DNA from: a virus
Length of the DNA stretch: 12,710 bases
Strand: one strand, 5' to 3'
Virus record (IMG/VR): IMGVR_UViG_3300045988_019235
Location: 1-12,710 of that record
Shown in pieces: positions 1 to 12,710 of this stretch. The notes under the pieces were generated by a model. The model was given only the letters and a program-made list of their open reading frames with translations, had not been told where the DNA came from and ran no database searches. The position numbers and the translations under genes were made by a program. How positions within the stretch are numbered: position 1 is the first letter of the stretch; each line of letters opens with the position of its first letter.

Positions 1-23
1 TTCCTCTGAACGCTCTTCCGATC
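1..23. other. Adapter-like terminal 23-mer (probable library artefact, not phage DNA)
   Basis: TTCCTCTGAACGCTCTTCCGATC contains GCTCTTCCGATC, the reverse complement of the Illumina adapter core GATCGGAAGAGC. The whole 23-mer resembles the old paired-end adapter ...TTCCTGCTGAACCGCTCTTCCGATCT apart from two 1-nt gaps. Confidence 0.7.
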
Positions 24-179
24 CAGCATAAAGGTACACAAGGCACCCATTTTTAACATTTCCCAACAGGTTTTTAACACTTGCTAACACACTTTGGCAC
101 GCTTTTTGTTGCCGTGCCACAAGTACCACAATTAACAAGCCTTAACACACTTTAACTCTGTTAAACTTTCATAAAAATG

Positions 180-224
180 ATGTTTCACGTGGAACGGTGG
201 CAAAGTGAATGTTTCACGTGGAAC
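180..224. promoter_or_regulatory. Two ATGTTTCACGTGGAAC sites (182..195 and 211..224) at the inner edge of ITR-L; candidate protein-binding sites
   Basis: The same 16-mer occurs twice, 29 bp apart. It has a CACGTG core and is a near-palindrome. The same motif recurs at 7603..7616 and at 12459..12529. Confidence 0.6.
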
Positions 225-285
225 AAAATTGCGTATATGTTAAAAAGATTTAAATTAATATTTTTGCATTATTTAACAAAAATAA

Positions 286-317
286 TTTGGTTTGTTCGTG
301 GAAAATGCTTATCTTTG
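286..317 (+). promoter_or_regulatory. Promoter P1 (Bacteroidota-type: -33 TTTG at 286..289, -7 TAtcTTTG at 310..317)
   Basis: The sequence is TTTGGT...20-nt spacer...TATCTTTGCA, lying about 45 nt upstream of the ATG at 362. The same architecture and spacing occur at P2 and P3. Confidence 0.7.
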
Positions 318-361
318 CAACAGATTTAGAAATTTAGTTCAACCCTTTAAAATACAAGAAT

Positions 362-688
362 ATGGCAACGTATGAAATTACTTTAGAGTTTGAAACAGTT
401 TTATCTGTTGACGGTACACGTGTTAAAAGTGAAACATCACGTGAAACACAAATAGTTACAGGTGTTTTTGCTGACGTGGCAAAAGTTATGTTTGAACACG
501 AAACAAACTGCATCAAGCACAACAGATTGCCAAAGTTGACGAAAGACGTTTACACCGTCTTTGAATCGAAAGATAGTTTGAACTACATCAACGAATATGG
601 ATGCTGTGTTACTCAACTTTGCAACAAATTAGGTAATAACGCTAGTTCATTCTTACAGTTGATTCAAACAAGCAAAAGAATCAAATAA
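362..688 (+). CDS. Hypothetical protein (108 aa), first gene of the left operon
   Basis: ORF directly downstream of P1 with no competing long ORF. The C-terminal segment VTQLCNKLGNNASSFLQLIQ could be helix-turn-helix-like, which is speculative. It carries a CACGTGAAACA half-site internally (438..448). Confidence 0.6.
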   Translation: MATYEITLEFETVLSVDGTRVKSETSRETQIVTGVFADVAKVMFEHETNCIKHNRLPKLTKDVYTVFESKDSLNYINEYGCCVTQLCNKLGNNASSFLQLIQTSKRIK

Positions 689-698
689 ATGTTTAACC

Positions 699-724
699 GC
701 CTGTAAGGTTCAACCCTTACAGGC
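699..724 (+). other. Intergenic 10-bp-stem hairpin GCCTGTAAGG-ttcaac-CCTTACAGGC inside a GTTTAACCGCC...GGCACAAA motif
   Basis: Perfect inverted repeat read directly. No T-tract follows, so it is not a canonical intrinsic terminator. Confidence 0.5.
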
Positions 725-739
725 ACAAACAAAAAAGTT

Positions 740-934
740 ATGATTAGAGTTGAAAAGTTTAAGTTTGAAAACCGTTTTGAATCTTTTGAAACGAAAAACA
801 TAAAGGTAGTTACAAAAGCGTTAAAAGACTATCGTTTTTGTGGTGGCGGTTTATATATCCACACAAAGTTTGTCGGGCAATATGCAAAGGTGGATTTTAT
901 AGACGTTAACGGCAAACCTGTTAAAAGCATATAA
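740..934 (+). CDS. Hypothetical protein (64 aa)
   Basis: ORF in the same orientation and tightly spaced within the left operon. No recognisable motif. Confidence 0.5.
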   Translation: MIRVEKFKFENRFESFETKNIKVVTKALKDYRFCGGGLYIHTKFVGQYAKVDFIDVNGKPVKSI

Positions 935-969
935 GTTTAACCGCCCTTATGGGCACAAATAATTGATAT

Positions 970-1164
970 ATGGAATATTCATATTTTAAAATTACATTGA
1001 AACAGTCGGACAAAGTAACCGTGTATATGGTACGTTCTGACAAAGTAAGCGAGTTTTTCAACAACAAAATCGACTATTTACAGGGCGACTGTTCGATAAC
1101 TGTAAAGGGTCGTTTTCCAACGCACAAAGATTCTCGAAAGTGGTTTATTGTTTCACCTAAATAA
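970..1164 (+). CDS. Hypothetical protein (64 aa)
   Basis: ORF in operon context, ending 2 nt before the endolysin ORF. No recognisable motif. Confidence 0.5.
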   Translation: MEYSYFKITLKQSDKVTVYMVRSDKVSEFFNNKIDYLQGDCSITVKGRFPTHKDSRKWFIVSPK

Positions 1165-1172
1165 TAGTGTAT

Positions 1173-1595
1173 ATGAAAAAGATTAAGTATTTTAGTTTGA
1201 ATGAGTTTATCACCTCACCAACTGCAAAACGTTTGGGCATTGACAATTTGCCAACGTTTGAAATCGTTGACAACTTGAATCGTCTTGCCGATTATTTGGA
1301 TGGCATCCGTGAAAAGTTAGGCAAACCGATATTGATTAATAGCGGTTATCGTTCACCGATTCTTAATAAAGCGGTTGGCGGTGTGTCTAACAGTCAACAC
1401 CTTAAAGGTTTGGCTGCGGATATTGTTTGCTCTGATATGGAATCTTTGTTAAAGGTTCTTAGAGAAACAGGCGGTTTTGACCAACTTATTAAGGAACACC
1501 GCAAAGGTTCTACATCTTTTTGGTATCACGTTTCAGTTTGTTCACGTAACGGCAAACCCCGTAATCAAGTAATAATGAATCTAGAAAAGAAATAG
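1173..1595 (+). CDS. Endolysin, zinc peptidase M15 family (VanY / L-Ala-D-Glu peptidase-like)
   Basis: SQHLKGLAAD matches the M15 zinc-binding signature SxHxxGxAxD, and a downstream His lies in FWYHVS. It is single-domain, with no signal peptide or TM segment. The ORF track begins at GTG 1167; ATG 1173 (MKKIKYF...) is the more likely start. Confidence 0.85.
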   Translation: MKKIKYFSLNEFITSPTAKRLGIDNLPTFEIVDNLNRLADYLDGIREKLGKPILINSGYRSPILNKAVGGVSNSQHLKGLAADIVCSDMESLLKVLRETGGFDQLIKEHRKGSTSFWYHVSVCSRNGKPRNQVIMNLEKK

Positions 1596-1597
1596 TT

Positions 1598-1846
1598 ATG
1601 CACGAACATTTTAAACTTCTGAAAGATTCCATTTCAGTAACAAAGAAAAGTATTGAAACTGTTGCAAACGATTCAGCTAGCGAAACAGGTTTACTGTTAA
1701 CTTCGTGTGCTGATACCTTACAGGCGAATTTGATTTTCATTGATGCTTTAGAAGTTAAAGCACAAACCTGTTTAGCAGAACGAAACGACCTGTTAACGTT
1801 CATCAATAACAAAGGGTTGTTAGAAGAATTTTATGGTAAGAAATAA
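1598..1846 (+). CDS. Hypothetical protein (82 aa), last gene of the left operon
   Basis: ATG 2 nt after the endolysin stop. Predicted to be helical, with no clear TM segment. Followed by the bidirectional terminator. Confidence 0.55.
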   Translation: MHEHFKLLKDSISVTKKSIETVANDSASETGLLLTSCADTLQANLIFIDALEVKAQTCLAERNDLLTFINNKGLLEEFYGKK

Positions 1847-1850
1847 AGAA

Positions 1851-1878
1851 AACGGGCGGCATCCATTTACCGCCCGTT
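1851..1878. terminator. Bidirectional intrinsic terminator between convergent operons
   Basis: AACGGGCGG-catccattta-CCGCCCGTT is a perfect 9-bp GC-rich stem. It is followed by ATCTTTT on the + strand and by TTTTCTTTATTT on the - strand. It sits between the stops at 1846 (+) and 1884 (-). Confidence 0.8.
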
Positions 1879-1883
1879 ATCTT

Positions 1884-3977
1884 TTATAGATAAACACCTG
1901 TTTCAAGCTGTGAAACAATTTCGTTATATTCATCAACCAACAGATTTGCCGTGTTCAAATTCACGTTGGAAAACTGTGCGAAACCTGTAACCGCATTTAT
2001 AGTTACGTTTTCTTGCGTGTTGTTTACAGGAACATCAACGGTTAAATTCTCAGTAATCAATACATAAGGTTCTAAACCGTACAAAATTTGTTCGTTCCAT
2101 TGTTCACCGCCAACAACGTTTAAATCCGTTCCCAAACGGTAAAGAACATCACGTGACAAAGAAAAACTTTCAATTTGGAATGTCACACCGTCACACGATA
2201 ACAACGCAACAGAATCGCCCGTAATAACGTTTACTTTGATAGTTAAATTAATCGTTTTACCGATGTATTTACTATCTATAGTAACAACACCCCGACACGG
2301 AATAAACATCTGTACCTGTGCGTTAAAGTCTTCATTGTTACCGTTTGCGCCTGTTAGTTCAACGTTTCCGAAATCTAGAACAATAACATCACTATCGGGA
2401 TATTTTACATTTATTCCCGTGTTGTAGTTACCGCATTTCAGAACGTCATCACCGCCAACGGGAACGGTTGTAAAGATTCTTTTGATACGGTTTACATATT
2501 GACCCAAATTGACTTCTGAATATTTTGCACCCGTTTCTGTTTCCCCTGTTTGAACAAAGAAACGTTTCTTTGCAAACTCATCCAAATTCGCCAACGTAAC
2601 GATATAAACGTTTATAGCACCGTAATTTTTGATAGTTGGCGGTGTAACTACATTCGCATTCGCAACGATATTCAAATCAACTGCATTCGGTGTTAAAGTG
2701 AACGTTACACTACCCGTTTGTTTATCTGCTGATATTGTACCGTTTACAACTACGGGATTCCCGTCATCATCTTTGAAATTTGCTTCAATTTCGGTCAATT
2801 CCGTGTTCGGGTTTGCTCTGAAATTAAACGTGTAACTTTGACCCGTTTTAACCTTTACAGGTTTATCGCCAACGATTTCGCAATTAGTCAAACCGTATTG
2901 AACTTCGATATATTTACCTAATAAGTACTCACCGTTGATAATAACCGATTCCGTTGCTATAGGCACAATAGCCGTTGCGGTTTGGTTCGTTACAGTCATA
3001 TTGTAGGTTTCGCCACCGTATGTTATCGTTGGCGTACCGTTAAACATTCCCTTTGCGTTTCCTGTAACCGTTACGGTGTAATTTGTTTCACTTGCAACAG
3101 AACTTGCTGTTGTGTTCTGAATATTGTTGGTTATTTGCAGTTCACGAACACCCGAAATAAAACTACCTGTTATAGTAATTTCGTCACCCTTAGAACAATA
3201 AACAGTAAGTGTTGCAACGTTACCCGATACGGCAAACGGTTCTTTTGTATAGTTTCCATCCCAATCGGTATAACTAGCCATCAAATTGCTAAATGTGCCC
3301 TCACCGTTACCCGTCACCGTTACATTGAAGTGGTGGGCATCCGTTCCCTGTTGGTCGGTTATTGTAACGTCACCCGTCAAACCTGTTTTGTCATAAGACA
3401 ACAAAGTTGTCGGTGTTGGTGGGTCGGGTGTGCCACCGCTTACAAACTCACCTGTTATCGCAATCTCATCACCTTTATTACAGTAAACCGTAATCGTTCC
3501 AACGTTACCCGATACGGCAAACGGTTCTTTTGTATAGTTTCCATCCCAATCGGTATAACTAGCCATCAAATTGCTAAATGTGCCCTCACCGTTACCCGTC
3601 ACCGTTACATTGAAGTGGTGGGCATCCGTTCCCTGTTGGTCGGTTATTGTAACGTCACCCGTCAAACCTGTTGTGTCGTATTTTAACAAGTTTGTGGGCG
3701 TTGGTGTACCGCTTACAAATTCACCGTAAACCGTAACGGTGTTCCAATAGTTTGTGTTGGCAAATAATGTGGCGACTTTTCCGTTAACTGTAAACGGGTG
3801 TTTTGCCCAATCGCCATCCATATTTTCATAGCCACCCGATAAACCGTCTTTAAAATAACCGTCAACGTTTCCCGTCAAAGTTATTTTAAAATGTTTGTCG
3901 TCACCGTCTTGTTCAACTTTCGTTGAAACATCACCGACAAATCGTGATAAACTAATATTTACTAATCTTTCAGCCAT
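1884..3977 (-). CDS. Tail / receptor-binding protein (697 aa) with N-terminal tandem beta-sandwich-like repeats
   Basis: Last and largest gene of the structural operon. It has three about 95-aa tandem modules at the N-terminus (two near-identical), further Ig-like-looking segments and a distinct about 250-aa C-terminal domain. Function is inferred from position and architecture only. Confidence 0.55.
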   Translation of the reverse strand: MAERLVNISLSRFVGDVSTKVEQDGDDKHFKITLTGNVDGYFKDGLSGGYENMDGDWAKHPFTVNGKVATLFANTNYWNTVTVYGEFVSGTPTPTNLLKYDTTGLTGDVTITDQQGTDAHHFNVTVTGNGEGTFSNLMASYTDWDGNYTKEPFAVSGNVGTITVYCNKGDEIAITGEFVSGGTPDPPTPTTLLSYDKTGLTGDVTITDQQGTDAHHFNVTVTGNGEGTFSNLMASYTDWDGNYTKEPFAVSGNVATLTVYCSKGDEITITGSFISGVRELQITNNIQNTTASSVASETNYTVTVTGNAKGMFNGTPTITYGGETYNMTVTNQTATAIVPIATESVIINGEYLLGKYIEVQYGLTNCEIVGDKPVKVKTGQSYTFNFRANPNTELTEIEANFKDDDGNPVVVNGTISADKQTGSVTFTLTPNAVDLNIVANANVVTPPTIKNYGAINVYIVTLANLDEFAKKRFFVQTGETETGAKYSEVNLGQYVNRIKRIFTTVPVGGDDVLKCGNYNTGINVKYPDSDVIVLDFGNVELTGANGNNEDFNAQVQMFIPCRGVVTIDSKYIGKTINLTIKVNVITGDSVALLSCDGVTFQIESFSLSRDVLYRLGTDLNVVGGEQWNEQILYGLEPYVLITENLTVDVPVNNTQENVTINAVTGFAQFSNVNLNTANLLVDEYNEIVSQLETGVYL
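3123..3977 (-). repeat. Tandem 285-bp (95-codon) coding repeat, three units (3693..3977 diverged; 3408..3692 and 3123..3407 near-identical)
   Basis: 3216..3387 and 3501..3672 are 172 bp of perfect identity, checked base by base, offset by exactly 285 bp. Confidence 0.9.
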
Positions 3978-4425
3978 ATTTTAAAACGTTACCTTTAATA
4001 GTTACCATAACAATACTACCTGTTTCGTTCAACAACCCCTTATTCGGAAAATCTAGTTTTCTGATGTTAGGTCGAACGTCAACAACGTTTGAACGGTTTG
4101 AAAGATATTTGTTTCCGTTTTCGCTTTTAGTCAACGTTGCAGTACTGTTTAAGATAATATCCTTATAAGTAAACAGAACGTCAACACGTAAACGAACGGT
4201 GCAAATATCGCCATCCTGTTGTTTCTCTGAAACGAAATAATAACGGTTCAAACTTTCGATATAAACATAGTTAAACGTTACAGGGGTTCGTGTTCTGAAA
4301 CGAACAACAGGGGTTAACACGTTGAACGTTGCATTCAACACACCCGTATATTCTTCGTTTTCCTGTAACGTCTTGTTTACTTCATTCGGTTTACCGTTGT
4401 AAATGAAAGTTTTAATTTTAACCAT
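3970..4425 (-). CDS. Hypothetical structural protein (151 aa), possible tail/collar component
   Basis: Lies between the capsid and tail-fibre genes. Its stop overlaps the start of the 697-aa gene by 8 nt, suggesting translational coupling. No motif recognised. Confidence 0.5.
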   Translation of the reverse strand: MVKIKTFIYNGKPNEVNKTLQENEEYTGVLNATFNVLTPVVRFRTRTPVTFNYVYIESLNRYYFVSEKQQDGDICTVRLRVDVLFTYKDIILNSTATLTKSENGNKYLSNRSNVVDVRPNIRKLDFPNKGLLNETGSIVMVTIKGNVLKYG

Positions 4426-4430
4426 ACCTT

Positions 4431-4477
4431 AAAAGCTAAAAGGGGCATCCCTGTGCTATCAACTACAGGAACACCCC
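4431..4477 (-). terminator. Intrinsic terminator/attenuator downstream of the major capsid gene
   Basis: The minus-strand RNA reads GGGGUGUUCCUGU-aguugauagc-ACAGGGAUGCCCC followed by UUUUAGCUUUU. This is a 13-bp stem including 3 G-U pairs that only form in the minus-strand sense. Confidence 0.55.
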
Positions 4478-4496
4478 AACAGTTAAACAACTAAAA

Positions 4497-5681
4497 TTAG
4501 GCAACAAAGAACACAACAAAGTTTTCGTTTGTGTCGTTGAAGTAACCCGCATCAAACTTGAAATAGTTGTTGAAAAACTCTGCTTTTGCGTTGTAGTTGG
4601 TGGTTACTCGCTTATCCAAATTTGTAACACCCAACGCATCACGGTCGAACATCACACCCAACACACCGCTAACTGAAACGCTCGCACCGCTTGCCGATTT
4701 AACGTCAATCTTTGAAACGTCTGCAAAAGCGTAATCTGTGCCTGTTGCTTGCCAACTTGCAACGGTTTCAGCCTGTGGCAACAGAACGTTCTCGCTGTGG
4801 AACGTGTCGGCATACAGGTATGCTTTTGCAGCGGCTGCGAAATCGGACAACAGAACGGTGTGCAAAACGTCTTTCGGTGTGAATCGTTCCTTACCGCCAA
4901 CGTTGAACAGGGTTGAAATTGTCTGCAAACGGTCGGCATACAAACCCATTGTATAGGCTGCAAAACGGATGAAATCGGGTGTGGTTACTGCTGCGTCTGC
5001 GGTCAAATGTGCGCCCGTCTTAGTGTTGTAAAGTTTCAACAGGTTCACGCAACGAACAGTACTAGCAATTGAATAGTCAACAGTTTCGTGTGTTGATGCT
5101 AACCAACCGAAAGCGGTTTTGTCGGCATTCAAAGTTTCCGCAATCATATTGTTAATTGTGCGCATAACAAGCGCATCCGTCTTGATAGTCATTGACTTCT
5201 CAACTGCGGAATAAATCATTGACAGGAAACCGTTCAACTGCTCTGCACTACTGAAAGATTCCTTTACCTGTCTTTCGGTAATTGATACAGGAACTTCAAA
5301 AGTTACCTTTGAGTTGAAGAACTTAGCGGAAACGGTCGGTTTGTGGAACACGTCTTGTTTGTACTCTGTACCGTCTTTGAGATTCCACGTGTCGTTTTCC
5401 TCAGCCTGTGGAACGTCAGCGGAAATCTTTTCCAAAACGCTACCAAATTCCCACGCATCCATAAGAACACTCGGAACTTTACCCGAATAAGGGCGGTTCA
5501 CAAAAACAACCTTACCGATGTGGTTAACCAACGATTTAACGTAATTATCCACGGCATTTTGGTTGAACACTTCGTTACCCAAATCAACCAAACCTGTAAG
5601 GTCTTCGTGTACCAAATCGGTTTTGCCCAATACTTCACCCGAAACGGTGTTAACTAAACTATAAATCTGCTTTACATTCAT
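4497..5681 (-). CDS. Major capsid protein (HK97-fold, phi29 gp8-like)
   Basis: 394 aa. The N-terminal region (NYVKSLVNHIGKVVFVNR) parallels the phi29 gp8 segment FITSLVDRIGLVVIRQ recalled from memory. Its position downstream of the connector and the following attenuator fit a highly expressed capsid gene. Confidence 0.75.
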   Translation of the reverse strand: MNVKQIYSLVNTVSGEVLGKTDLVHEDLTGLVDLGNEVFNQNAVDNYVKSLVNHIGKVVFVNRPYSGKVPSVLMDAWEFGSVLEKISADVPQAEENDTWNLKDGTEYKQDVFHKPTVSAKFFNSKVTFEVPVSITERQVKESFSSAEQLNGFLSMIYSAVEKSMTIKTDALVMRTINNMIAETLNADKTAFGWLASTHETVDYSIASTVRCVNLLKLYNTKTGAHLTADAAVTTPDFIRFAAYTMGLYADRLQTISTLFNVGGKERFTPKDVLHTVLLSDFAAAAKAYLYADTFHSENVLLPQAETVASWQATGTDYAFADVSKIDVKSASGASVSVSGVLGVMFDRDALGVTNLDKRVTTNYNAKAEFFNNYFKFDAGYFNDTNENFVVFFVA

Positions 5682-5701
5682 TTTTATAAAAATTTTATGT
5701 A

Positions 5702-6271
5702 TTAATAAATATCTATTGTTAACTCTTTTGCAAGTTCTGTTATCACTTGCGTTTTGAAATTAGTTTTGCGCAAACTCATTTCTTTTTGAATAATTTCACT
5801 AGTTGGAACACTAGACGGAACACCGTTCTTAATACTTGTTTTCGTGCCCGTTTCTTGTCTGTTCCCTGTGGAATCTCTTTGCTGTTTCGTGTCATTTCCA
5901 AATTCCCCATTATTAAACGTTACACTTGAATCGACTGTGCTGTTATTGCCTGTTTCGTCAACGGTGTTACTTGTTGTTTCCGTTGTCTTTGACGTTACAG
6001 GGTTCAACACGTCATATTCTTTATTAAACACTTGAATCTGTTTTTGCCATTCGCCAAACTTTACTGTAATAATACCTTTGACAATATCGTTTGCAGTTTC
6101 GTTTGTAACGGCATCACACAAAGTTCTGTTTCCATATTTGAAACGAAAATCAATATCTATTATTTTCGGGTCATCCGTGCCGAATATTGATTCATACAAA
6201 ACAGGAAACAGGGGTTTAAAGATTTTATCAAATAAACCGTTTTCAGTTGTAAAAAGTTCATTAATTTTCAT
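5702..6271 (-). CDS. Hypothetical structural protein (189 aa), possible scaffold or head-associated protein
   Basis: Lies between the connector and capsid genes. Its start overlaps the connector stop by 11 nt. The middle is T/S/N-rich low complexity and the C-terminus is helical. Function is inferred from position only. Confidence 0.45.
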   Translation of the reverse strand: MKINELFTTENGLFDKIFKPLFPVLYESIFGTDDPKIIDIDFRFKYGNRTLCDAVTNETANDIVKGIITVKFGEWQKQIQVFNKEYDVLNPVTSKTTETTSNTVDETGNNSTVDSSVTFNNGEFGNDTKQQRDSTGNRQETGTKTSIKNGVPSSVPTSEIIQKEMSLRKTNFKTQVITELAKELTIDIY

Positions 6272-7325
6272 CTTTGTTTTCTTTTTCTTCTGTTTCTTCT
6301 GTTTCTTGCGTTTCTTCTGTTTCTGTTTCTGTTTCTTCTGTTTCTTCTGTTTCTTCTGTTTCTGTTTCCGTTTCTTCTGTTTCTTGCGTTTCTTCTGTTT
6401 CGTTTTCCGTTACAGGGTCAACGTCTTCTGTGTCGGTGTGTTCGTGCCCGTCTTCTGTTGCTTTGAGCAACGACAAATAATTTTCGTGTTCGATTTTCCA
6501 ACTTGACCCCAAAGTTACGGTAATATCCGTACCGAACATTTCGTTAACACGTTTCACACCCTCAACACGTTCTGTTAACATTGAATCAACGAACGGCATC
6601 AAAGCATCAATATTCATTGAAACTTCTTGCGTGTTCAATCGTTCACGTTTCATATTATAGTTTGCATTCAAACCCAAATCGTTGAACATTGATGCTTTGT
6701 AGTACTGCAACAGTTCTATTAATTGACCGATTTGTTGGTTTCCCTGTGTCGGTGGGGTCTGTAAGTTTACACCTTTGAAAAAAGCATTTTCACCGATAAC
6801 AGAAAAATCACCGTTCAAAATTTTCTGTAAGAACGATTCTGCACTCTGTTTGGTCTTATCGTCACTTGCCGAAATCAACATAGTGATGCGGGTCAATATG
6901 CTAGCCAAATTCAAAGTTATTGTGGCATCCGTGTAAAGTACACCATATTTGCCGATAATAGGCATAAGCGAATCCGCAAACGGTGTGTTATTGATAACTA
7001 CAATATCCTCATCAATTTTGAACGTTTTGTTCAACTTTAACCACGGGTTTGCAACAACGTAATCTTTGCCGTGATAATAGGCATCACAATCGCCACCCCG
7101 TGTGCCCTGTAAAGCATACAAATCCCCGTTGACTTCTGCTATTCCAACGTTACCCGTTGTTTGAAGAATCTTTTCAAGTTCAACAGGCGGCATTGTTTCG
7201 GGCATCCCCGTGTAAACAAACATTTTTGAAGTCATACAAAGAACACGTTGCATAAATGTGAATAATGCTGTATCTTTGTTTTTAACTTCTGTTTGAAACC
7301 TGTTATATAAGTTTTCTTTTTCCAT
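6261..7325 (-). CDS. Portal / head-tail connector (phi29 gp10 upper-collar-like) with acidic Glu/Thr-repeat C-terminal tail
   Basis: 354 aa. Size and pattern parallel phi29 gp10 as recalled from memory: MPETMPPVELEKILQTTGNVG near the N-terminus and NYNMKRERLNTQEVSMN in the centre. Confidence 0.75.
   Translation of the reverse strand: MEKENLYNRFQTEVKNKDTALFTFMQRVLCMTSKMFVYTGMPETMPPVELEKILQTTGNVGIAEVNGDLYALQGTRGGDCDAYYHGKDYVVANPWLKLNKTFKIDEDIVVINNTPFADSLMPIIGKYGVLYTDATITLNLASILTRITMLISASDDKTKQSAESFLQKILNGDFSVIGENAFFKGVNLQTPPTQGNQQIGQLIELLQYYKASMFNDLGLNANYNMKRERLNTQEVSMNIDALMPFVDSMLTERVEGVKRVNEMFGTDITVTLGSSWKIEHENYLSLLKATEDGHEHTDTEDVDPVTENETEETQETEETETETEETEETEETETETEETQETEETEEKENKDEN
6285..6410 (-). 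repeat. Coding microsatellite-like (TTCTGTTTC/TTCTGT)n tract encoding a 42-aa Glu/Thr tail
   Basis: The peptide TENETEETQETEETETETEETEETEETETETEETQETEETEE contains only E and T apart from one N and two Q. The DNA shows higher-order repeats. Confidence 0.9.
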
Positions 7326-7520
7326 TTACTTAATCAAAGTTTTAATTAAGGTACAAAGTTCTGTGAGCACCTTTGTGTTACTTTGTACCGTTTCATTTAA
7401 CTTGTCGGTTTCGTTTTGGTGTCGTTCGTTCTGTTTTTCCATATAGAAAAATAGGGCGACACACACCGCAACAGGAAAACCAACGTTGCTAATAAGTGAA
7501 ATTATTCCGTTTGCATCCAT
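7326..7520 (-). CDS. Small membrane protein (64 aa; N-terminal TM helix plus helical tail), holin candidate
   Basis: GIISLISNVGFPVAVCVALFFYM is the only clear TM segment in the genome. The ISNVGFPVAV pattern recalls YvrJ-family small membrane proteins (from memory, unverified). It is the first gene after P2, and its stop abuts the connector ATG. Confidence 0.6.
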   Translation of the reverse strand: MDANGIISLISNVGFPVAVCVALFFYMEKQNERHQNETDKLNETVQSNTKVLTELCTLIKTLIK

Positions 7521-7553
7521 ATAGTAATTTTTTAACTTTGTTATTTAACGCTG

Positions 7554-7585
7554 CAAAGATAATAACTTTATTTGGTTTCACCAAA
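7554..7585 (-). promoter_or_regulatory. Promoter P2 (Bacteroidota-type) for the structural operon
   Basis: The minus strand reads TTTGGTG...20-nt spacer...TATCTTTGCAG. The -33 element is the complement of 7582..7585 and the -7 element the complement of 7554..7561. It lies about 34 nt upstream of the ATG at 7520. Confidence 0.7.
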
Positions 7586-7588
7586 TAA

Positions 7589-7632
7589 AACAGGGGAAAA
7601 ATGTTTCACGTGAAACAATTTTAACCCCTGTT
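7589..7632 (-). terminator. Terminator hairpin of the replication/packaging operon, with the GTTTCACGTGAAAC palindrome (7603..7616) embedded
   Basis: The outer 8-bp stem AACAGGGG/CCCCTGTT (7589..7596 / 7625..7632) encloses AAAA..TTTT and the perfect 14-bp palindrome. On the minus strand the hairpin is followed by TTTTATTTGG, which contains the -33 TTTG of P2. It starts 9 nt after the ATPase stop. Confidence 0.65.
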
Positions 7633-7640
7633 AACAGATA

Positions 7641-8780
7641 TTAAGTAATAATATTACTGCGAGCACTCGCCATTAAATAGTTACGAACGATTTCGCCAAT
7701 TTCGTTACTTTGATAAAATACCTTATCGGTAGCGAAATATTTAGTTATCTGCGATTCTATATACGTTGCAGTACTCAACAACTTTCGTTTGTAGTTCGGT
7801 TTGCCGTTCATTTGCAACGAATAAATCAAACTGTTGTCGGTGTCCTTAATCGGTGTTGTTTTGTTGTGAATGTAAATGAAATTATTCACACCGTTTTCTT
7901 TGTCCTCAACCTGTATCACGTTACCCTGTAACGTCATTTCGTTAAACTGAATATAGAAGACAAACAACACGTCACTCGGTTTATATTTTACAGGTAGGTG
8001 CGGATATACTGCTAGTTCCCATTTACCGCCCGTAATCATTTGCAAATTTTGGTTGTCGAAACAGAAATATTTGTTACTCGCTTTCTGTTTGACAACAGTA
8101 CTGCAATATTCAACCGCAACCGTTGCACCGTGCTCACCGAACTTATAAATATCTATTGTGCCCTGTTCCATCACTCGCACCTGTTTCAATCCCATTTCGG
8201 TAAAATACGGGCAAAACTGATTCACGGTATTACCTAACATAAAGACTTTAACATCATTTCTTTGACGAATAATTGTACTCAACAGGTTCATATATAGCAT
8301 AAACTCATCGGGCAAATAATAACGTCTTGTAAGGAACTCATCGAAAACAATAGTAGTTATGTTCGGGTAACTGCTAGATTTTTCGTGTTCCTGTTCTGAA
8401 AGACAAAAACCATAACAGAACGGTGTGTTTTCGGGCACACGTTTTTTCGTTTCTGCATCATAGAACGAAAGAAACCATTTACCCGAAACGTAAAACACTT
8501 CGTTAAACTTACCGTTTGTAAGTTCTTTTATCACACCGTTTGCCACGTGATTTGCAAACAAACTTTCTGCACGTTTGCCCCTTAAATCTTCTCGCCAACG
8601 TCTAATATAAGCCATTTGTTTACCTGTGCGCAAATATTCTTTTATTCCATACAACAACGTTGCATACGTCTTGCCGTTGGAACGTTCACCGAAAATAACG
8701 TTGTAATCTGCATTTTTTGATAAAATACGATTCAACGTGTAAAATTTAGGTGTTTCAACTTTTTCTTTTTTCTGTTTCAT
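7641..8780 (-). CDS. DNA encapsidation (packaging) ATPase, phi29 gp16-like
   Basis: 379 aa. Walker A is GERSNGKT (codons at 8667..8690) and Walker B-like is TTIVFDEF. Size and single-subunit organisation are typical of phi29-type packaging ATPases. Confidence 0.8.
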   Translation of the reverse strand: MKQKKEKVETPKFYTLNRILSKNADYNVIFGERSNGKTYATLLYGIKEYLRTGKQMAYIRRWREDLRGKRAESLFANHVANGVIKELTNGKFNEVFYVSGKWFLSFYDAETKKRVPENTPFCYGFCLSEQEHEKSSSYPNITTIVFDEFLTRRYYLPDEFMLYMNLLSTIIRQRNDVKVFMLGNTVNQFCPYFTEMGLKQVRVMEQGTIDIYKFGEHGATVAVEYCSTVVKQKASNKYFCFDNQNLQMITGGKWELAVYPHLPVKYKPSDVLFVFYIQFNEMTLQGNVIQVEDKENGVNNFIYIHNKTTPIKDTDNSLIYSLQMNGKPNYKRKLLSTATYIESQITKYFATDKVFYQSNEIGEIVRNYLMASARSNIIT

Positions 8781-8781
8781 A

Positions 8782-10989
8782 TTATTCCTTTTTTAATCTT
8801 ATTCCCATTAAATAATTTATATAAAGAACTGAAAGACTCAAAGTGTACCCCGTTGGTTCTAAATGTACCCCTGTGGTCGTATCGTAACTTGAAACGTTTC
8901 CCTTATAGTCTTTTATCGTTCCCGTTTGTTCGTAATCTATATACGTGTGGATGTTCTTACCTGTTGCACTCGGTGGGATGTCTAGATAGTTTGTGAACGC
9001 ATCGAACACACCATTTTCACCGTACGTTTCCACCATATAGGGGATAGCTGATTTCTTGTTGACACCCGAAACGGTCATAGAGTAATTATAATTTTTGCCG
9101 TTTACTGTAAGGGCATTTTCTTCTTCAACCATATATCTTTTAGCACCCAAAGTTTTAAAACGGCTGTATCTACCCTCATAGTCCCAAACCCCCAAAGGTT
9201 TTGCTATTCCCTTTATTGTGACGGGTTCAACTTTTTCAAAGGGGATTTTATGATGCTTACAGGCTGCACGCAATTTCTGTTGTGCCAAATCGTTGTATGC
9301 TTTGAAATATTCTTTGTGGGCATCCCCGTTCATTATTTTGACTGAATCGGTGTCGCTGTATATGTAATCGTCACCGCATTCTGAAATACCTGTAAACAAG
9401 TTTCTTCTTGCATAGGCGGTTACATAAATACCCCACGGGTAAAATAAAAAGCGGTTTTTGCTATCGTTGTATTTATTGAGCATTTCTAATTGCTTTTCGC
9501 CTGTAAGGTGTTCCACATCCCACGTTTCCCCGTCACATAGAATCTCATCACGCAACGGGTTTGTAACACACATACCGTAACAACTATTAAGCATTTCTTT
9601 ACTATTCAGATATTCCACTTCTTTACCCTTTACACCTTTAAGTTTCGTCTTCATTTCATACAGGTGCAAAATTGATTCCACAAATTCGGTCGGCAAATAT
9701 TCTTTGCGGTAACAAATCATTCGCCCGATTCTTATTTGTTCCCACGTGTAAAACTGTGAAAACACTTTGTAATCTATTTCTGTAATCGTCATACAGATTT
9801 TCTTTGCACAAACCAATCTACCGTTATTCTCGGAAACGTTTTCTTTGACGAAACATTTACTTACCGATATAGGGTTTTCGTTTTCTGATTTCGCAAATAT
9901 GTTTGTGATTTCTACATCGAACACACAACAAAATTTGCTAGTCATAAACTCAAACTGTTTCATAGACTTTACAGGAACAAAAACACCTGTGCTCATCGGG
10001 AATTTTTCCGACACCATAACATAAGGGTAACTGCTAGTAAAATCGTAACTATCTACGTTTTCAATTACCTCATCGGTATATTTTGCGTTTGCGTGTGTGA
10101 AACCGCCCGAAAACGCCCTTTGCAGCATAGAAAACTCTTCTAAACCTGTAATATTCAAAGAATGAATCTTATCAATATATTTAAAGTTAGGAATCGTTTT
10201 CCCCGTTTCGTCAGTTGTTTTAAAGCATACAGAACGGCAATACTTTCGGACAAACCCCGTTTTTGTAATCGGCAAACGTGTTATTCCTTTATATTGTTCT
10301 ATTAATTCCTGTATATAGCACATCACAACTTTTATGTCGTTCAAACAGTAACCAATTTCTTTTTGGGTCAACGGTGTTTCGCTGTGGCGCAACAGGGAAT
10401 AATCTAAATCCCCGACTAACTTTTCACATTTATATTTGTGAAGTTGTTCACCCAATTTCGCCAACGAATATCCCGAAAGTAAGTAACTGCATCGGAACTC
10501 TAAACCCGTTTTAGTTATTCCGTAAATAGGTTTTCTAAGGTCTATAGAAAAAACTTTTTCCCATTCCAACAGTTCACGGAAAAACTGAAATTCATAAGCT
10601 AAGTTATGCACGTATATAATAACACGCTTTTTCGGGCATAGTTCCAATATAGCCACGATTTCGACTAACATATTCAAAAACTCATCCCACGTTCTACCAA
10701 TAATGCAAAAACCGTTTATTCCAAATTGCCACACATACATCAAAGAACATTTTTCCATTTTGGTTTGTTTACCGCCTAATTTCATATAACGTTCATAACT
10801 GTATGTTTCGCCATCCGCATCCCTGTAAAAAGATGTAGTTTCAATATCGAAAGAAACAGGCACATTAAGGAACTTTTCGCCCTTATTATTGCCTGTAAAA
10901 TTCTTTTCGTTCACCGCCAAAGATAAAACCTTTGCAATATCTTTTGGGGTGTAAACTTCTGTTTGTAGTTCAAAGGGTATTTTCTTCAT
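8782..10989 (-). CDS. Protein-primed family-B DNA polymerase
   Basis: Motifs read directly: Exo I FDIET, Exo II HNLAYEF, Exo III YCLND, FSGG (YxGG-like), motif A DFTSSYPY, motif B KEMLNSCYG, motif C YSDTDS and KxY (AKRY). The long motif A to B spacing is compatible with a TPR1 insertion. The genome has ITRs. Confidence 0.92.
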   Translation of the reverse strand: MKKIPFELQTEVYTPKDIAKVLSLAVNEKNFTGNNKGEKFLNVPVSFDIETTSFYRDADGETYSYERYMKLGGKQTKMEKCSLMYVWQFGINGFCIIGRTWDEFLNMLVEIVAILELCPKKRVIIYVHNLAYEFQFFRELLEWEKVFSIDLRKPIYGITKTGLEFRCSYLLSGYSLAKLGEQLHKYKCEKLVGDLDYSLLRHSETPLTQKEIGYCLNDIKVVMCYIQELIEQYKGITRLPITKTGFVRKYCRSVCFKTTDETGKTIPNFKYIDKIHSLNITGLEEFSMLQRAFSGGFTHANAKYTDEVIENVDSYDFTSSYPYVMVSEKFPMSTGVFVPVKSMKQFEFMTSKFCCVFDVEITNIFAKSENENPISVSKCFVKENVSENNGRLVCAKKICMTITEIDYKVFSQFYTWEQIRIGRMICYRKEYLPTEFVESILHLYEMKTKLKGVKGKEVEYLNSKEMLNSCYGMCVTNPLRDEILCDGETWDVEHLTGEKQLEMLNKYNDSKNRFLFYPWGIYVTAYARRNLFTGISECGDDYIYSDTDSVKIMNGDAHKEYFKAYNDLAQQKLRAACKHHKIPFEKVEPVTIKGIAKPLGVWDYEGRYSRFKTLGAKRYMVEEENALTVNGKNYNYSMTVSGVNKKSAIPYMVETYGENGVFDAFTNYLDIPPSATGKNIHTYIDYEQTGTIKDYKGNVSSYDTTTGVHLEPTGYTLSLSVLYINYLMGIRLKKE

Positions 10990-11660
10990 TATAAACCAAA
11001 TTTTTCAAATTCTTGCAATATCTTTTTTAACGGCTCATCCGTTTTAAATTCGTCAACGTCATTCACGTATGCTTCTGCTGTACCACTGTGGGCGATTTGG
11101 TCTATTGCATCATCCAACGCATTTTCAATTCTAACCGCATCGTCTTCGATTTGGTCGGACACGTCACGGGATTCCTGTTCAAGTTCACCTGTAAAGTCTT
11201 TATATTGCATTAAGTATTGTTCCAAAAATCTTTCATCGGAAACACTTGCAATTTTACCCATTAATTTATCTTGCATCAACTTAAATTCTTTATCGTTTAA
11301 GTCGTAAGACTTCTTTAAGTGATTTGAGTACTCACGTGTACCACTTGCCGTTGATGTCGGTTGTTGCAAAAAAGAAACCGCTTTGGAATATTCGATTTTT
11401 AAATCGTTCCAATCGTGTTTCATTGAAAATTTTGCGAAACCTTTGATGTCACCTTTGTTCAACGCAACAACTGCGGGCGAAACCAAACCCATTTTTTCCA
11501 CGTTTTGGATTCTTCGATTTGCCTGTTGAAATACACGGGCGATTTCTTTGCGTAAATAGCCACGTGATTCTATTGCATCCATTATCTGCTTATCTACGTG
11601 TATTTTAGAAGTTGATGCAAAAGTTCTTTTTGAAAAACCTATCGGATTCAATTTAGCCAT
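10989..11660 (-). CDS. Candidate terminal protein (223 aa)
   Basis: Immediately upstream of the polymerase and translationally coupled to it (TAATG overlap at 10989), as in phi29 gene 3 / gene 2. The N-terminal half is basic and the C-terminal third strongly acidic, as in the DNA-mimicking priming domain of known TPs. No sequence-level proof. Confidence 0.5.
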   Translation of the reverse strand: MAKLNPIGFSKRTFASTSKIHVDKQIMDAIESRGYLRKEIARVFQQANRRIQNVEKMGLVSPAVVALNKGDIKGFAKFSMKHDWNDLKIEYSKAVSFLQQPTSTASGTREYSNHLKKSYDLNDKEFKLMQDKLMGKIASVSDERFLEQYLMQYKDFTGELEQESRDVSDQIEDDAVRIENALDDAIDQIAHSGTAEAYVNDVDEFKTDEPLKKILQEFEKFGL

Positions 11661-11684
11661 ATTATTACAGTTTTAAAATGAAAC

Positions 11685-11727
11685 AAAAAACGGGGCAACA
11701 ATAAACAAAGTTACTGTTTACCCCGTC
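11685..11727 (-). terminator. Putative attenuator/terminator between the 121-aa gene and the TP-polymerase genes
   Basis: The minus-strand RNA reads ACGGGGUAA...UUGCCCCGU, a 9-bp stem with one G-U pair, followed by UUUUUU. It starts 30 nt after the stop at 11757 and ends about 24 nt before the ATG at 11660. Confidence 0.45.
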
Positions 11728-11756
11728 ACGTTATCCACCCTTTACCCTACGAAAAA

Positions 11757-12122
11757 CTACTTATCTACAAACGTTATACCATAACATTTCTTTGCGTGCG
11801 ATTCATATTCGTAAATCGTGTAACCAACTTTGTTGGCTTTGATAGCATCAACCGCCTCACTATCTGCGAGAATCTCACGAATCGTGTCACCTGTGAACTG
11901 TGGCAAATTTACAAGACGTTTGTTCTCGGCATCAATAATAACAGGCGAATCACCCAACTGCGATTTGTGAACGTACATACCGTTGATAGGGTGTACCACA
12001 TCACCGCCACCCTCATTCTCGCTGTTGAAAATGTCGGTCAACTTTACAAACGGAAAATCGGTTGTATCAATACCGAAACTTGTCTTATTGAACTTACTTG
12101 CAAAACTAAAACCTTTAGCCAT
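11757..12122 (-). CDS. Early protein (121 aa), possible ssDNA-binding protein
   Basis: Its size and position (upstream of TP and polymerase) mirror phi29 p5 (124 aa). The C-terminal strand-loop-strand pattern is loosely similar. Weak evidence. Confidence 0.55.
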   Translation of the reverse strand: MAKGFSFASKFNKTSFGIDTTDFPFVKLTDIFNSENEGGGDVVHPINGMYVHKSQLGDSPVIIDAENKRLVNLPQFTGDTIREILADSEAVDAIKANKVGYTIYEYESHAKKCYGITFVDK

Positions 12123-12156
12123 AACTTAATCTTTTTAAAACGTTAAACTTCTGTTG

Positions 12157-12324
12157 TTACTTTACTTCATTCAAACCGTTTGCAGCCGCAAAATCGTTCA
12201 ACCACTTCTTAAAGCGGTTCAACTTAATAACCGCCTTATCGTCTTTAGCAACTTCGTTTGAAGTCATTAAAGCGTTAACACTTGTAATACAGTTGAAAAC
12301 AGTTTCATTAAAATTTTCGTTCAT
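12157..12324 (-). CDS. Small early protein (55 aa), absent from the supplied ORF track
   Basis: Hand translation of the minus strand gives MNENFNETVFNCITSVNALMTSNEVAKDDKAVIKLNRFKKWLNDFAAANGLNEVK*. The ATG at 12324 lies about 45 nt downstream of P3, and the ORF fills an otherwise empty gap before the 121-aa gene. Confidence 0.55.
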   Translation of the reverse strand: MNENFNETVFNCITSVNALMTSNEVAKDDKAVIKLNRFKKWLNDFAAANGLNEVK

Positions 12325-12374
12325 AACTTACCTAATTTAAATTGTTAAACTTATATTGTTTATTAAACACGGTG

Positions 12375-12406
12375 CAAAGATACGTCTTTTTCTAATAACC
12401 ACCAAA
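12375..12406 (-). promoter_or_regulatory. Promoter P3 (Bacteroidota-type) for the right-end replication operon
   Basis: The minus strand reads TTTGGTG...20-nt spacer...TATCTTTGCAC. The -33 element is the complement of 12403..12406 and the -7 element the complement of 12375..12382. The upstream TTAACtAAAATAATTTGGT is 18/19 identical to the equivalent P1 segment. Confidence 0.7.
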
Positions 12407-12458
12407 TTATTTTAGTTAAAAAGTATTAAAGAATAAAATTAATATCTGTTAACACTTC

Positions 12459-12529
12459 GTTTCACGTGAAACATTAATAACAGTTTGTTCCACGTGAAAC
12501 ATTCACTTTGCCACCGTTCCACGTGAAAC
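12459..12529. promoter_or_regulatory. Three phased GTT(T/C)CACGTGAAAC sites (12459..12472 unique perfect palindrome; 12487..12500 and 12516..12529 in ITR-R)
   Basis: Read directly. Spacing is 28 and 29 bp. The unique copy is flanked by the CTGTTA/TAACAG inverted repeat (12446..12451 / 12478..12483). Confidence 0.6.
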
Positions 12530-12710
12530 ATCATTTTTATGAAAGTTTAACAGAGTTAAAGTGTGTTAAGGCTTGTTAATTGTGGTACTTGTGGCACGGC
12601 AACAAAAAGCGTGCCAAAGTGTGTTAGCAAGTGTTAAAAACCTGTTGGGAAATGTTAAAAATGGGTGCCTTGTGTACCTTTATGCTGGATCGGAAGAGCG
12701 TTCAGAGGAA
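12484..12710. repeat. Right inverted terminal repeat (ITR-R)
   Basis: Exact reverse complement of 1..227. Confidence 0.95.
12688..12710. other. Adapter-like terminal 23-mer (mirror copy)
   Basis: GATCGGAAGAGCGTTCAGAGGAA, compared with the Illumina PE adapter GATCGGAAGAGCGGTTCAGCAGGAA... as recalled from memory. Confidence 0.7.

Follow-up and report, generated by a model that had tools for sequence, protein, structure and literature searches.

Ends, genes and expression signals of a probable phi29-like podophage from an uncultured gut lineage of the Astrithrvirus-like clade

The 12,710-nucleotide stretch of DNA analysed here (IMG/VR virus record IMGVR_UViG_3300045988_019235, positions 1 to 12,710; hereafter the window) is a full linear phage genome with inverted terminal repeats (ITRs) and 16 genes. 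A first-pass annotation, made from the letters alone, had proposed a complete phi29-like genome with this number of genes, and the ends, the gene set and the profile matches reported below all agree with that proposal. We consider it very probable that the window holds the complete 12,652-bp linear genome of a lytic-type, phi29-like podophage, which belongs to the Astrithrvirus-like clade as a separate gut lineage and most likely infects Bacteroidota.

Physical ends of the genome

The 16 open reading frames (ORFs) occupy 90% of the window; 11 of them are encoded on the minus strand, and the five plus-strand ORFs lie at the left end. They are framed by an inverted repeat whose arms, at 1-227 and 12484-12710, are 100% complementary. 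The outer part of each arm is foreign: positions 10-23 (ACGCTCTTCCGATC) are identical over all 14 nt to the 3' end of the Illumina TruSeq adapter, and the same match occurs at the other end. The perfect ITRs that had been described at the bounds of the window are thus real over 198 bp, whereas the outer 29 nt on each side are adapter and junk; the deposited contig is 58 nt overlong and its "ITR" 29 nt overlong. The terminal features are as follows.

1-29, mirrored at 12682-12710: adapter and junk, non-phage; TruSeq tail ACGCTCTTCCGATC at 10-23 plus 6 nt of junk, CAGCAT
30-227, plus strand: left ITR, 198 bp, 5'-AAAGGTACAC; palindrome copies at 183-195 and 212-224; TAACA-rich repeats
12484-12681, minus strand: right ITR, 198 bp, same AAAGGTACAC terminus; palindrome copies at 12488-12500 and 12517-12529

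The junk, as CCAGCAT, is also seen in a related contig, L070.

The position of the true terminus is given by the relatives. Among 85 related contigs, GGTACAC lies no more than 80 nt from the tip at 65 contig ends, AAA exactly precedes it at 46 of those 65, and AAAGGTACAC is the very start of 24 contig ends. In seven assemblies (L023, L029, L038, L054, L056, L061/L089 and L064) adapter sequence ending in GCTCTTCCGATCT is fused directly to AAAGGTACAC, and in related assemblies the full adapter, ending in GTGTGCTCTTCCGATCT, immediately adjoins it. Because adapter was ligated at one fixed base across many independent libraries, these ends are physical: the AAAGGTACAC terminus marks the end of the DNA molecule. 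From the fixed junctions in the relatives it follows that the genome corresponds to window positions 30-12681 (12,652 bp; 37.7% GC), begins 5'-AAAGGTACAC and has a perfect ITR of 198 bp. Such adapter-to-terminus junctions in public assemblies serve as a stand-in for read mapping, and the approach is reusable for other phages with ITRs.

It is very improbable that the contig is an assembly artefact, with a false ITR made by adapter-mediated or fold-back joining, or a fragment of a larger element. The assembler did include artefactual sequence, as the outer 29 nt at both ends attest; however, the 198 nt inside them are genuine ITR sequence conserved in relatives, and dozens of independent assemblies from several datasets, 11.2-12.75 kb long, end at AAAGGTACAC. 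Moreover, ITRs of ~170-220 bp are annotated in cultured relatives, which share the gene set, and replication, packaging, head, tail and lysis functions are all present. The first-pass annotation had also named flanking host DNA as a sign of an integrated element. No host flanks were found on 37 related contigs from metagenome-assembled genomes (MAGs) or bacterial assemblies or on 80 IMG/VR contigs, all of which are phage-sized (at most 14.4 kb), and Pfam and PHROGs profile searches found no integrase or repressor among the window proteins; together these observations weigh against integration. No transfer RNA genes were found in the window.

The ITR is presumed to be the origin of protein-primed replication. 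Beyond the perfect repeat, the two ends stay 88.5% identical out to ~320-340 nt, and therefore each end has a paralogous promoter region. The ITR also contains a TAACA-rich zone at 50-150, with a 21-nt unit present in 1.9 copies at 50-89, which may provide arrayed sites to which the replication initiation complex or a p6-like DNA-binding protein binds.

A phi29-type gene core

Nine genes make up the core of the genome; the Pfam and PHROGs matches of the polymerase, ATPase, connector and capsid, like those of the endolysin below, exceed the curated cut-offs. The hhalign values to Astrithrvirus proteins given here and below are from profile-profile comparisons of family alignments built from 85 lineage genomes, which also served for gene presence, with the families of the Astrithrvirus-like isolates.

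10989-11660, minus strand: candidate terminal protein (TP), 223 aa; its stop codon overlaps the polymerase start codon; match to astrithr gp02 family
8782-10989, minus strand: protein-primed family-B DNA polymerase (pPolB), 735 aa; DNA_pol_B_2 (PF03175) 8.8e-17; phrog_1907 3.9e-70
7641-8780, minus strand: DNA packaging ATPase of phi29 gp16 type, 379 aa; Podovirus_Gp16 (PF05894) 1.9e-23; phrog_2150 3.3e-34
7326-7520, minus strand: holin-like single-pass membrane protein, 64 aa; phrog_4898 (holin) 4.2e-8; hhalign 99.0% to astrithr gp05
6261-7325, minus strand: head-tail connector (portal) of phi29 gp10 type, 354 aa; Phage_connector (PF05352) 5.3e-14; phrog_2038 1.3e-36; hhalign 100% to Astrithrvirus gp06
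5702-6271, minus strand: 189-aa protein, Astrithrvirus gp07 homologue; hhalign 97.3% to the a07 family
4497-5681, minus strand: major capsid protein of phi29 gp8 type, 394 aa; Phi29_MCP (PF25622) 1.9e-53
3970-4425, minus strand: N-terminal part of the tail knob, 151 aa; counterpart of the phi29 gp9 N-terminal domain; hhalign 98.9% to astrithr gp09
1884-3977, minus strand: distal tail protein, 697 aa; array of immunoglobulin (Ig)-like domains as N-part, putative C-terminal knob part as C-part

Profile searches for pPolB, the connector, the gp16 ATPase and the phi29-type capsid had been suggested as the way to check the initial reading, and the Pfam matches above (8.8e-17, 5.3e-14, 1.9e-23 and 1.9e-53, respectively) are all significant. 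Aligned with the phi29 and GA-1 polymerases, the polymerase has the ExoI, ExoIII, A, B, C and KxY motifs. ExoII reads NLAYE (window 10591-10605, residues ~129-133), in which Glu replaces the catalytic Asp66 of phi29; the full set of exonuclease and polymerase motifs that had been claimed does align with phi29, with this one substitution. As the astrithr and Phanie polymerases carry the same Asp-to-Glu change, it is a clade trait rather than an error. The 223-aa gene had been read as a TP-like gene coupled to the polymerase, and the stop/start overlap and an hhalign match of 97.1% to the astrithr gp02 family are compatible with this; from its position and its homology to the candidate TP of Astrithrvirus, we regard it as a candidate TP. 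The ATPase has Walker A (GERSNGKT) and Walker B (IVFDE) motifs that can be read from the sequence, and the connector also matches p10 of phi29 and GA-1 (hhalign 97.5%).

The last part of the connector gene contains a 9-nt repeat (~13 copies, 6279-6401) that encodes an acidic (TEE)n C-terminal tail. In some relatives, naive ORF calling across this repeat gives the next ORF a spurious K/R-rich N-terminal extension.

A separate lineage in the Astrithrvirus-like clade

Megablast with the whole window gave no match to GenBank phages. A capsid search, however, found a tight set of isolates at 56-59% amino acid identity, which includes the following.

Acinetobacter phage Phanie (Aci01-2-Phanie), 11.9 kb
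Pectobacterium phage DU_PP_III, 11.5 kb
Enterobacter phage Entb_47, 11.6 kb
Shigella phage vB_SHGBLB0004, 11.15 kb
Vibrio phage K58 g2, 10.4 kb

The same Astrithrvirus-like group also holds the Salmonella phages astrithr, Astrid and assan. It corresponds to "cluster 23" of Evseev et al. 2024, the phi29-like phages of Gram-negative bacteria with genomes of 11-14 kb (PMC11476376).

The nine-gene core (TP, polymerase, ATPase, small membrane protein, connector, 189-aa protein, capsid, 151-aa protein, large tail protein) is homologous and collinear with that of astrithr, Phanie, DU_PP_III, Entb_47 and K58 g2, the isolate maps having the order of the reverse complement of the window. By tblastn the identities span 22-59%: 50-54% for the ATPase, 42-47% for the polymerase, 37-45% for the connector, 29-34% for the TP candidate, 24-30% for the 151-aa protein and 22-36% for the 64-aa membrane protein, which lies at the same position in all Astrithrvirus-like phages. 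The isolates also have ITRs, annotated as 219-bp terminal repeats in DU_PP_III and perfect over 171 bp in Phanie. Nothing in the isolates corresponds to the endolysin, to any of the small genes or to the N-terminal 400 aa of the 697-aa protein.

The intergenomic nucleotide similarity of the window comes to 11.1% with astrithr and to 9.9-12.8% with the remaining isolates. When computed likewise, astrithr scores 27.9% with Phanie and 41.3% with DU_PP_III, which matches the published 30-40% (PMC11476376). The genus Astrithrvirus takes in phages whose genomes are at least 70% identical in nucleotides to that of Astrithrvirus astrithr; at 10-13% similarity the phage lies outside that genus and represents a separate genus-level lineage of the same higher, family-level clade, whose features of a collinear core, a size of 10-14 kb and ITRs of ~200 bp it shares. 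It likewise has the features by which phi29-like phages are recognized more broadly, namely a pPolB, ITRs with defined ends, gp16-, gp10- and gp8-type proteins and a gp9-type knob.

Published descriptions of the clade cover much of this architecture. Its members have a phi29-like polymerase, TP, capsid, upper collar and lower collar, the last shorter than that of phi29; two genes encode the tail knob, one for a small protein resembling the N-part of p9 and one for a large multi-domain protein that resembles the C-part of p9 in its own C-part and has Ig-like domains in variable number; and there are no tail fibres or spikes (PMC11476376). The initial remark that the ATPase, unlike in phi29, lies in the polymerase operon describes the gene order correctly, and so does the remark that only the 189-, 151- and 697-aa proteins are left to build the tail; neither is new, both being published traits of Astrithrvirus-like phages (PMC11476376). 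The suggestion that the genome is near the lower size limit of tailed phages does not hold, as 12.65 kb is above the known minimum and the isolates of 10.4-11.9 kb are smaller. Astrid and astrithr, at 11.6 kb and described as "non-satellite", have been put forward as the size floor of isolated tailed phages (bioRxiv 10.1101/2025.06.18.659913). The K58 g2 deposit (L003, OZ195715.1, 10,390 bp) starts inside the terminase gene and its polymerase runs off the end; it is permuted and probably incomplete, and its 10.4 kb does not count as a record of genome size.

The lineage itself is abundant in metagenomes. The exact capsid protein occurs on a gut-type metagenome scaffold in ENA, with 99.3% nucleotide identity, and 354 IMG/VR contigs encode a relative; the best 80 of these 354 have capsid identities of 89-98%, and nearly all are 11.2-12.75 kb long. 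Clusters at 90% identity for the 189-aa protein have 379-692 members, and relatives of the large tail protein number more than 1,200. Genome-wide, similarity to the window is 91-94% for the nearest contigs and ~71% for other lineage members, so that the lineage amounts to several species across about one genus. Twelve to 13 of the 16 genes are present in at least 79 of the 85 lineage genomes.

A split tail knob and an array of Ig-like domains

A hidden Markov model (HMM) of the 151-aa family matches the solved knob structures of the picoviruses C1 (streptococcal; 4EO2, E 3.8e-5), Andhra (staphylococcal; 8EGS, E 0.005) and phi29 (gp9; 5FB4, E 1.3), all three at knob N-terminal residues ~50-125, and hhalign gives a weak match (38%) to p9 of phi29 and GA-1. 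Profile comparison thus confirms the predicted role of this protein as the N-terminal part of the knob (knob-N).

The 697-aa protein is composite. AlphaFold2 (AF2) predicts five tandem Ig-like beta-sandwich domains in residues 1-445 with a predicted local distance difference test score (pLDDT) of 85-93, and in Foldseek searches this array resembles other Ig or fibronectin type III arrays, among them LILRB ectodomains and the extender of a giant bacterial adhesin (6XI3). Within the gene, a 285-nt tandem duplication at 3160-3706 (1.9 copies, 91% identical) encodes two of the Ig-like domains, a recent duplication of 95 aa. Homologues span 602-802 aa, which implies that the number of Ig domains differs between strains, and the gene is the most variable of the structural genes (median identity 55%, versus ~92% for the capsid, in 85 relatives). 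Such divergence, together with the range in length, is the pattern expected of a receptor-binding or adhesion module, and we consider this to be the probable function of the array. Residues ~407-696 align with residues 274-566 of Astrithrvirus gp10 (a10; hhalign 98.3%); this homology and published modelling support the C-part as a putative C-terminal knob domain (knob-C).

The 189-aa protein is predicted to form a short lower collar or tail tube, the counterpart of phi29 gp11, because it is homologous to gp07, comes after the connector, the place that gp11 has after gp10 in phi29, and carries this label in the review of the clade (PMC11476376). Its AF2 model has helices that flank a ~65-residue polar segment with two beta-strands. 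Alternatively, it may be a scaffold.

Several observations weigh against the reading of the window as a complete and functional phi29-like genome, or against parts of it. The candidate TP has no Pfam match and no similarity to p3 of phi29 detectable by hhalign. Solved structures do not confirm the 189-aa protein, for which Foldseek, a PDB HMM search and hhalign against gp11 gave no match, nor do they confirm knob-C, for which the PDB profile search gave noise and the phi29 profiles no match. The structure prediction that had been recommended for the tail proteins was confident for residues 1-445 of the 697-aa protein; the 189-aa model is of low confidence, with a pLDDT of 55, and the C-terminal ~250 aa of the 697-aa protein (446-697) are left unpredicted at a pLDDT of ~28, the available homologues being near-invariant there. 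Prohead assembly and packaging in phi29 require a scaffolding protein and the packaging RNA (pRNA). No scaffolding protein was identified in the window, no pRNA was found in Rfam (no match at E<=1), and the terminal non-coding regions have no pRNA-like fold (z from +2.0 to -2.4, unconvincing). The absence of a pRNA fits the clade, since pRNA has been reported only from Bacillus relatives of phi29 (PMC11476376). A sub-threshold Rfam match to CsrC (23 bits versus a gathering score of 61 bits) was dismissed as noise.

Autonomous or helper-dependent growth

A further point on the same side concerns the autonomy of the phage, which is not assured: a review relays that virions of Phanie, a close relative, lack infectivity unless they are attached to the tail of a myophage, Aci01-1 (Pourcel et al. 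2024, via PMC11476376). The same phage could therefore be helper-dependent in the manner of Phanie, with a tail that is non-infectious on its own and docks through the Ig array on that of a co-infecting myophage. Homology to Phanie extends over the tail module (gp7, gp9 and the C-terminus of gp10; hhalign 97-99% versus families that include Phanie), no gene for a tail fibre, a tailspike or a gp13-like tail lysin was found with Pfam and PHROGs, and multi-Ig arrays occur both in the 697-aa protein and in the Phanie protein (PMC11476376). In addition, the review suggests that other clade members may share the strategy of Phanie (PMC11476376), and the lineage has never been cultured despite hundreds of assemblies. 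However, this tail architecture is also that of Astrid and astrithr, which have been described as forming plaques and as non-satellite phages (bioRxiv 10.1101/2025.06.18.659913), so the architecture alone implies no helper dependence; and the Ig-array region is not homologous to that of Phanie, the hhalign match covering the C-terminal domain only. On balance we consider helper dependence unlikely. More doubtful still is its most specific form, a tail-hijacking, helper-dependent mini-phage of Bacteroidota or Melainabacteria that docks by a hypervariable Ig array and is the gut counterpart of Phanie. If true, helper dependence would explain both the minimal gene set and the resistance to isolation, and would extend the tail-hijacking lifestyle to the gut.

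Transcription signals

The bipartite motif TTTG-N19-21-TAnnTTTG, which we take from the Bacteroides literature to be the Bacteroidota promoter consensus, has four matches in the window versus 0.52 expected, and none of 200 shuffles reaches four. Three of them precede operons.

286-317, plus strand: left promoter, TTTGG-N20-TATCTTTG, precedes the plus-strand operon
7554-7585, minus strand: late promoter, TTTGG-N20-TATCTTTG, precedes the late operon
12375-12406, minus strand: right promoter, TTTGG-N20-TATCTTTG, precedes the early replication operon

The late promoter is kept in 81 distinct relatives, in which only the "nn" positions vary. Per genome the motif occurs 3.47 times in this lineage (0.18 in shuffled sequences, a ~19-fold enrichment), 1.71 times in more distant relatives that lack Shine-Dalgarno sites, 0.12 times in relatives that use them and 0.20 times in the isolates. 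The fourth match, at 7510-7540 on the plus strand, points away from any gene and was treated as chance. A TAnnTTTG box at 11706 on the minus strand, upstream of the TP gene, was rejected as a fourth promoter, as it sits within a terminator-like hairpin loop and has no TTTG at -33. Sigma-70 sites are not enriched in the window (31 found, 33 expected).

A clear Shine-Dalgarno site is missing from all 16 genes. In the same six core genes, this lineage has such a site in 0-1 of the six, whereas GGAG, GAGG or AGGA sites are found in the enterobacterial and Acinetobacter isolates and in distant relatives binned as Clostridia.

A 14-bp palindrome, GTTTCACGTGRAAC, occurs at six sites versus 0.07 expected.

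183-195 and 212-224: left ITR
7603-7616: upstream of the late promoter
12460-12472: just inside the right unique region
12488-12500 and 12517-12529: right ITR

Each of the three promoters has a palindrome 50-150 nt upstream, and the palindrome is probably the operator of a dimeric regulator, encoded by phage or host, that would coordinate early and late transcription. It is present too in a distant relative, L119.

Four hairpins, each at an operon or gene boundary, complete the map.

1851-1878, minus strand: strong terminator hairpin with an 11-bp stem (seven G-C pairs), at the meeting point of the convergent operons
4426-4496, minus strand: hairpin and U-run after the capsid gene, probable attenuator; dG -23.7 kcal/mol, z -3.1
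7575-7631, minus strand: early-operon terminator, a GGGG...CCCC hairpin followed by a U-run; dG -27.3 kcal/mol, z -4.8
11661-11756, minus strand: hairpin and U-run between the 121-aa and TP genes, probable attenuator; dG -27.3 kcal/mol, z -3.4

The early terminator comes directly after the ATPase stop codon and abuts the late promoter, and the palindrome at 7603-7616 tops its hairpin. The four elements suggest graded transcription, with an early leader, a replication operon, and capsid made in excess over the tail proteins.

Endolysin and probable host

The lysis gene stands apart from the core, in the plus-strand cassette.

1167-1595, plus strand: endolysin, M15 zinc peptidase, 142 aa, GTG start; Peptidase_M15_3 4.7e-22; phrog_894 3.6e-38

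Its nearest cultured homologues are the endolysins of Bacteroides fragilis siphophages (46-48% identity) and also of Achromobacter phages. It is unrelated to the lysins of the Astrithrvirus isolates, which sit after the knob gene on the same strand; the opposite-strand M15 endolysin looks like a replacement of the lysis module that accompanied a change of host.

The conserved promoters, the lack of Shine-Dalgarno sites and the endolysin, nearest to those of Bacteroides phages, lead us to favour Bacteroidota as the host, with moderate confidence. Bacteroidota-type promoters without Shine-Dalgarno sites, unlike the signals of the clade isolates, would imply a host shift within the clade.

The binning of relatives counts on the other side and points to a different host for the same phage, a gut Melainabacterium of the Gastranaerophilales. 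The two closest relatives in the species-representative collection, L088 (QHMG01000022.1) and L089 (CAAGHI010000088.1), with 92% and 90% capsid identity, were independently binned into a Melainabacteria MAG and a Gastranaerophilales MAG. The GC content of ~37% is compatible with the low-GC Gastranaerophilales, and lineages related to Cyanobacteria also use few Shine-Dalgarno sites, which counts for such a host. However, binning of 12-kb contigs is unreliable, and we give it little weight because the bins of other relatives without Shine-Dalgarno sites scatter over six unrelated taxa (Scatosoma, Prevotella, Tissierella, Staphylococcaceae, Acutalibacteraceae and Christensenellaceae). The enriched and conserved bipartite promoter, a Bacteroidota signature, and the affinity of the endolysin to those of Bacteroides phages also speak against a Gastranaerophilales host, which we therefore regard as improbable.

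Small genes

The remaining six genes lie at the two ends of the genome.

362-688, plus strand: 108-aa protein, variable accessory gene, in 33 of 85 related genomes
740-934, plus strand: 64-aa protein, in 14 of 85 related genomes
970-1164, plus strand: 64-aa protein, in 79 of 85 related genomes
1598-1846, plus strand: 82-aa protein, divergent throughout the lineage
11757-12122, minus strand: 121-aa early protein, in 84 of 85 relatives, at the position of the single-stranded DNA-binding protein gene of phi29
12157-12324, minus strand: 55-aa early protein, early operon

None of these 55-, 64-, 64-, 82-, 108- and 121-aa proteins has a family match in Pfam or PHROGs, and when these small genes and the lysin were compared by hhalign with the small genes of Astrithrvirus, nothing reached 50%.

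Proposed life cycle and significance

Taking these results together, we propose the following scheme for the Bacteroidota-infecting podophage favoured here. The 223-aa TP would prime the family-B polymerase at the 3'-TTT ends of the 198-bp ITRs, and the AAA terminus suggests priming by sliding-back as in phi29. Two inward-facing promoters would adjoin the ITRs, and a central promoter would follow the early-operon terminator. The right promoter is predicted to drive the small early genes, TP, polymerase and ATPase; the left one, small genes and the M15 endolysin; and the central one, the holin-like protein, the connector, the 189-aa collar protein, the capsid, the 151-aa knob-N and the 697-aa knob-C/Ig-array protein. 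A regulator would act on all three through the palindrome upstream of each. The gp16-type ATPase would package DNA through the gp10-type connector, and the virion would have a reduced tail, made of a short collar and a knob split over two genes, with the Ig-like array as the likely adhesin.

The genome is an uncultured, genus-level addition to a recently reviewed clade; it sets no size record and has no new architecture. It adds little on the minimum size of tailed phages, as smaller isolates with the same plan have already been published. What it does show is that the Astrithrvirus-like body plan reaches a very abundant uncultured gut lineage, and it provides a host hypothesis and targets for isolation. 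The present analysis contributes the corrected ends, a link to hundreds of public assemblies, the confirmation of knob-N, the anatomy of the Ig array, the map of promoters, operators and terminators, and the Bacteroidota-type expression signals. With three promoters, a shared palindromic operator and four terminators or attenuators, the phage would offer a tidy minimal model if its host were found.

Comparison with known phages

With phi29 and the Salasmaviridae the phage shares a pPolB with all motifs, a linear genome with ITRs and a 5'-AAA terminus, a gp16-type ATPase, a gp10-type connector, a gp8-type capsid and the knob N-domain. The terminus of phi29 is 5'-AAAGTA, and terminal reiteration serves sliding-back after protein priming (PMC11476376). 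The differences are substantial: phi29 has 19.3 kb and a 6-bp ITR as compared to 12.65 kb and 198 bp here; the ATPase is placed in the early polymerase operon and the tail knob is split over two genes in the window; the gp12 appendages, gp13 tail lysin, gp8.5 head fibre, gp7 scaffold and pRNA of phi29 are undetected in it, as are recognizable homologues of p3, p4, p5 and p6; and its expression signals are not those of Firmicutes. In hhalign of the window families against p3, p4, p5, p6, p7, p11, p13, p14, p1, p17 and p16.7 of phi29 and GA-1, nothing reached 20%, the matches being limited to the connector and, weakly, the 151-aa protein with p9. The putative regulator that binds the palindrome would be a functional analogue of phi29 p4/p6, to which hhalign detects no homology.

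Bacteriophage sp. isolate 2692_55609 ("cluster 30"), a gut MAG, is likewise a ~12-kb phi29-like phage with a split knob, for which a Bacteroidales host has been proposed; it differs by description, its capsid and polymerase being closest to those of Amedibacillus phage AD70P2 (PMC11476376), whereas the window capsid is only ~28% identical to that of AD70P2/P3.

The Astrithrvirus-like isolates are the closest known system. They differ in that their endolysin is non-homologous and follows the knob gene, whereas that of the window is an M15 enzyme in an opposite-strand cassette; their small early genes and Ig-array N-terminus are unrelated to those of the window; their expression signals are of enterobacterial type, whereas the window has Bacteroidota-type promoters and no Shine-Dalgarno sites; their genomes end in GGG..., not AAAGG...; and they were isolated from wastewater on Gammaproteobacteria, whereas the phage described here is uncultured and comes from gut metagenomes. 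Both have ITRs of ~170-220 bp (198 bp in the window), genomes of 10.4-12.7 kb, a divergent small-gene cassette at one end and no tail fibres, and they share the nine-gene order, including homologous membrane, collar-position and knob-N proteins of ~63, ~185 and ~147 aa in the isolates.

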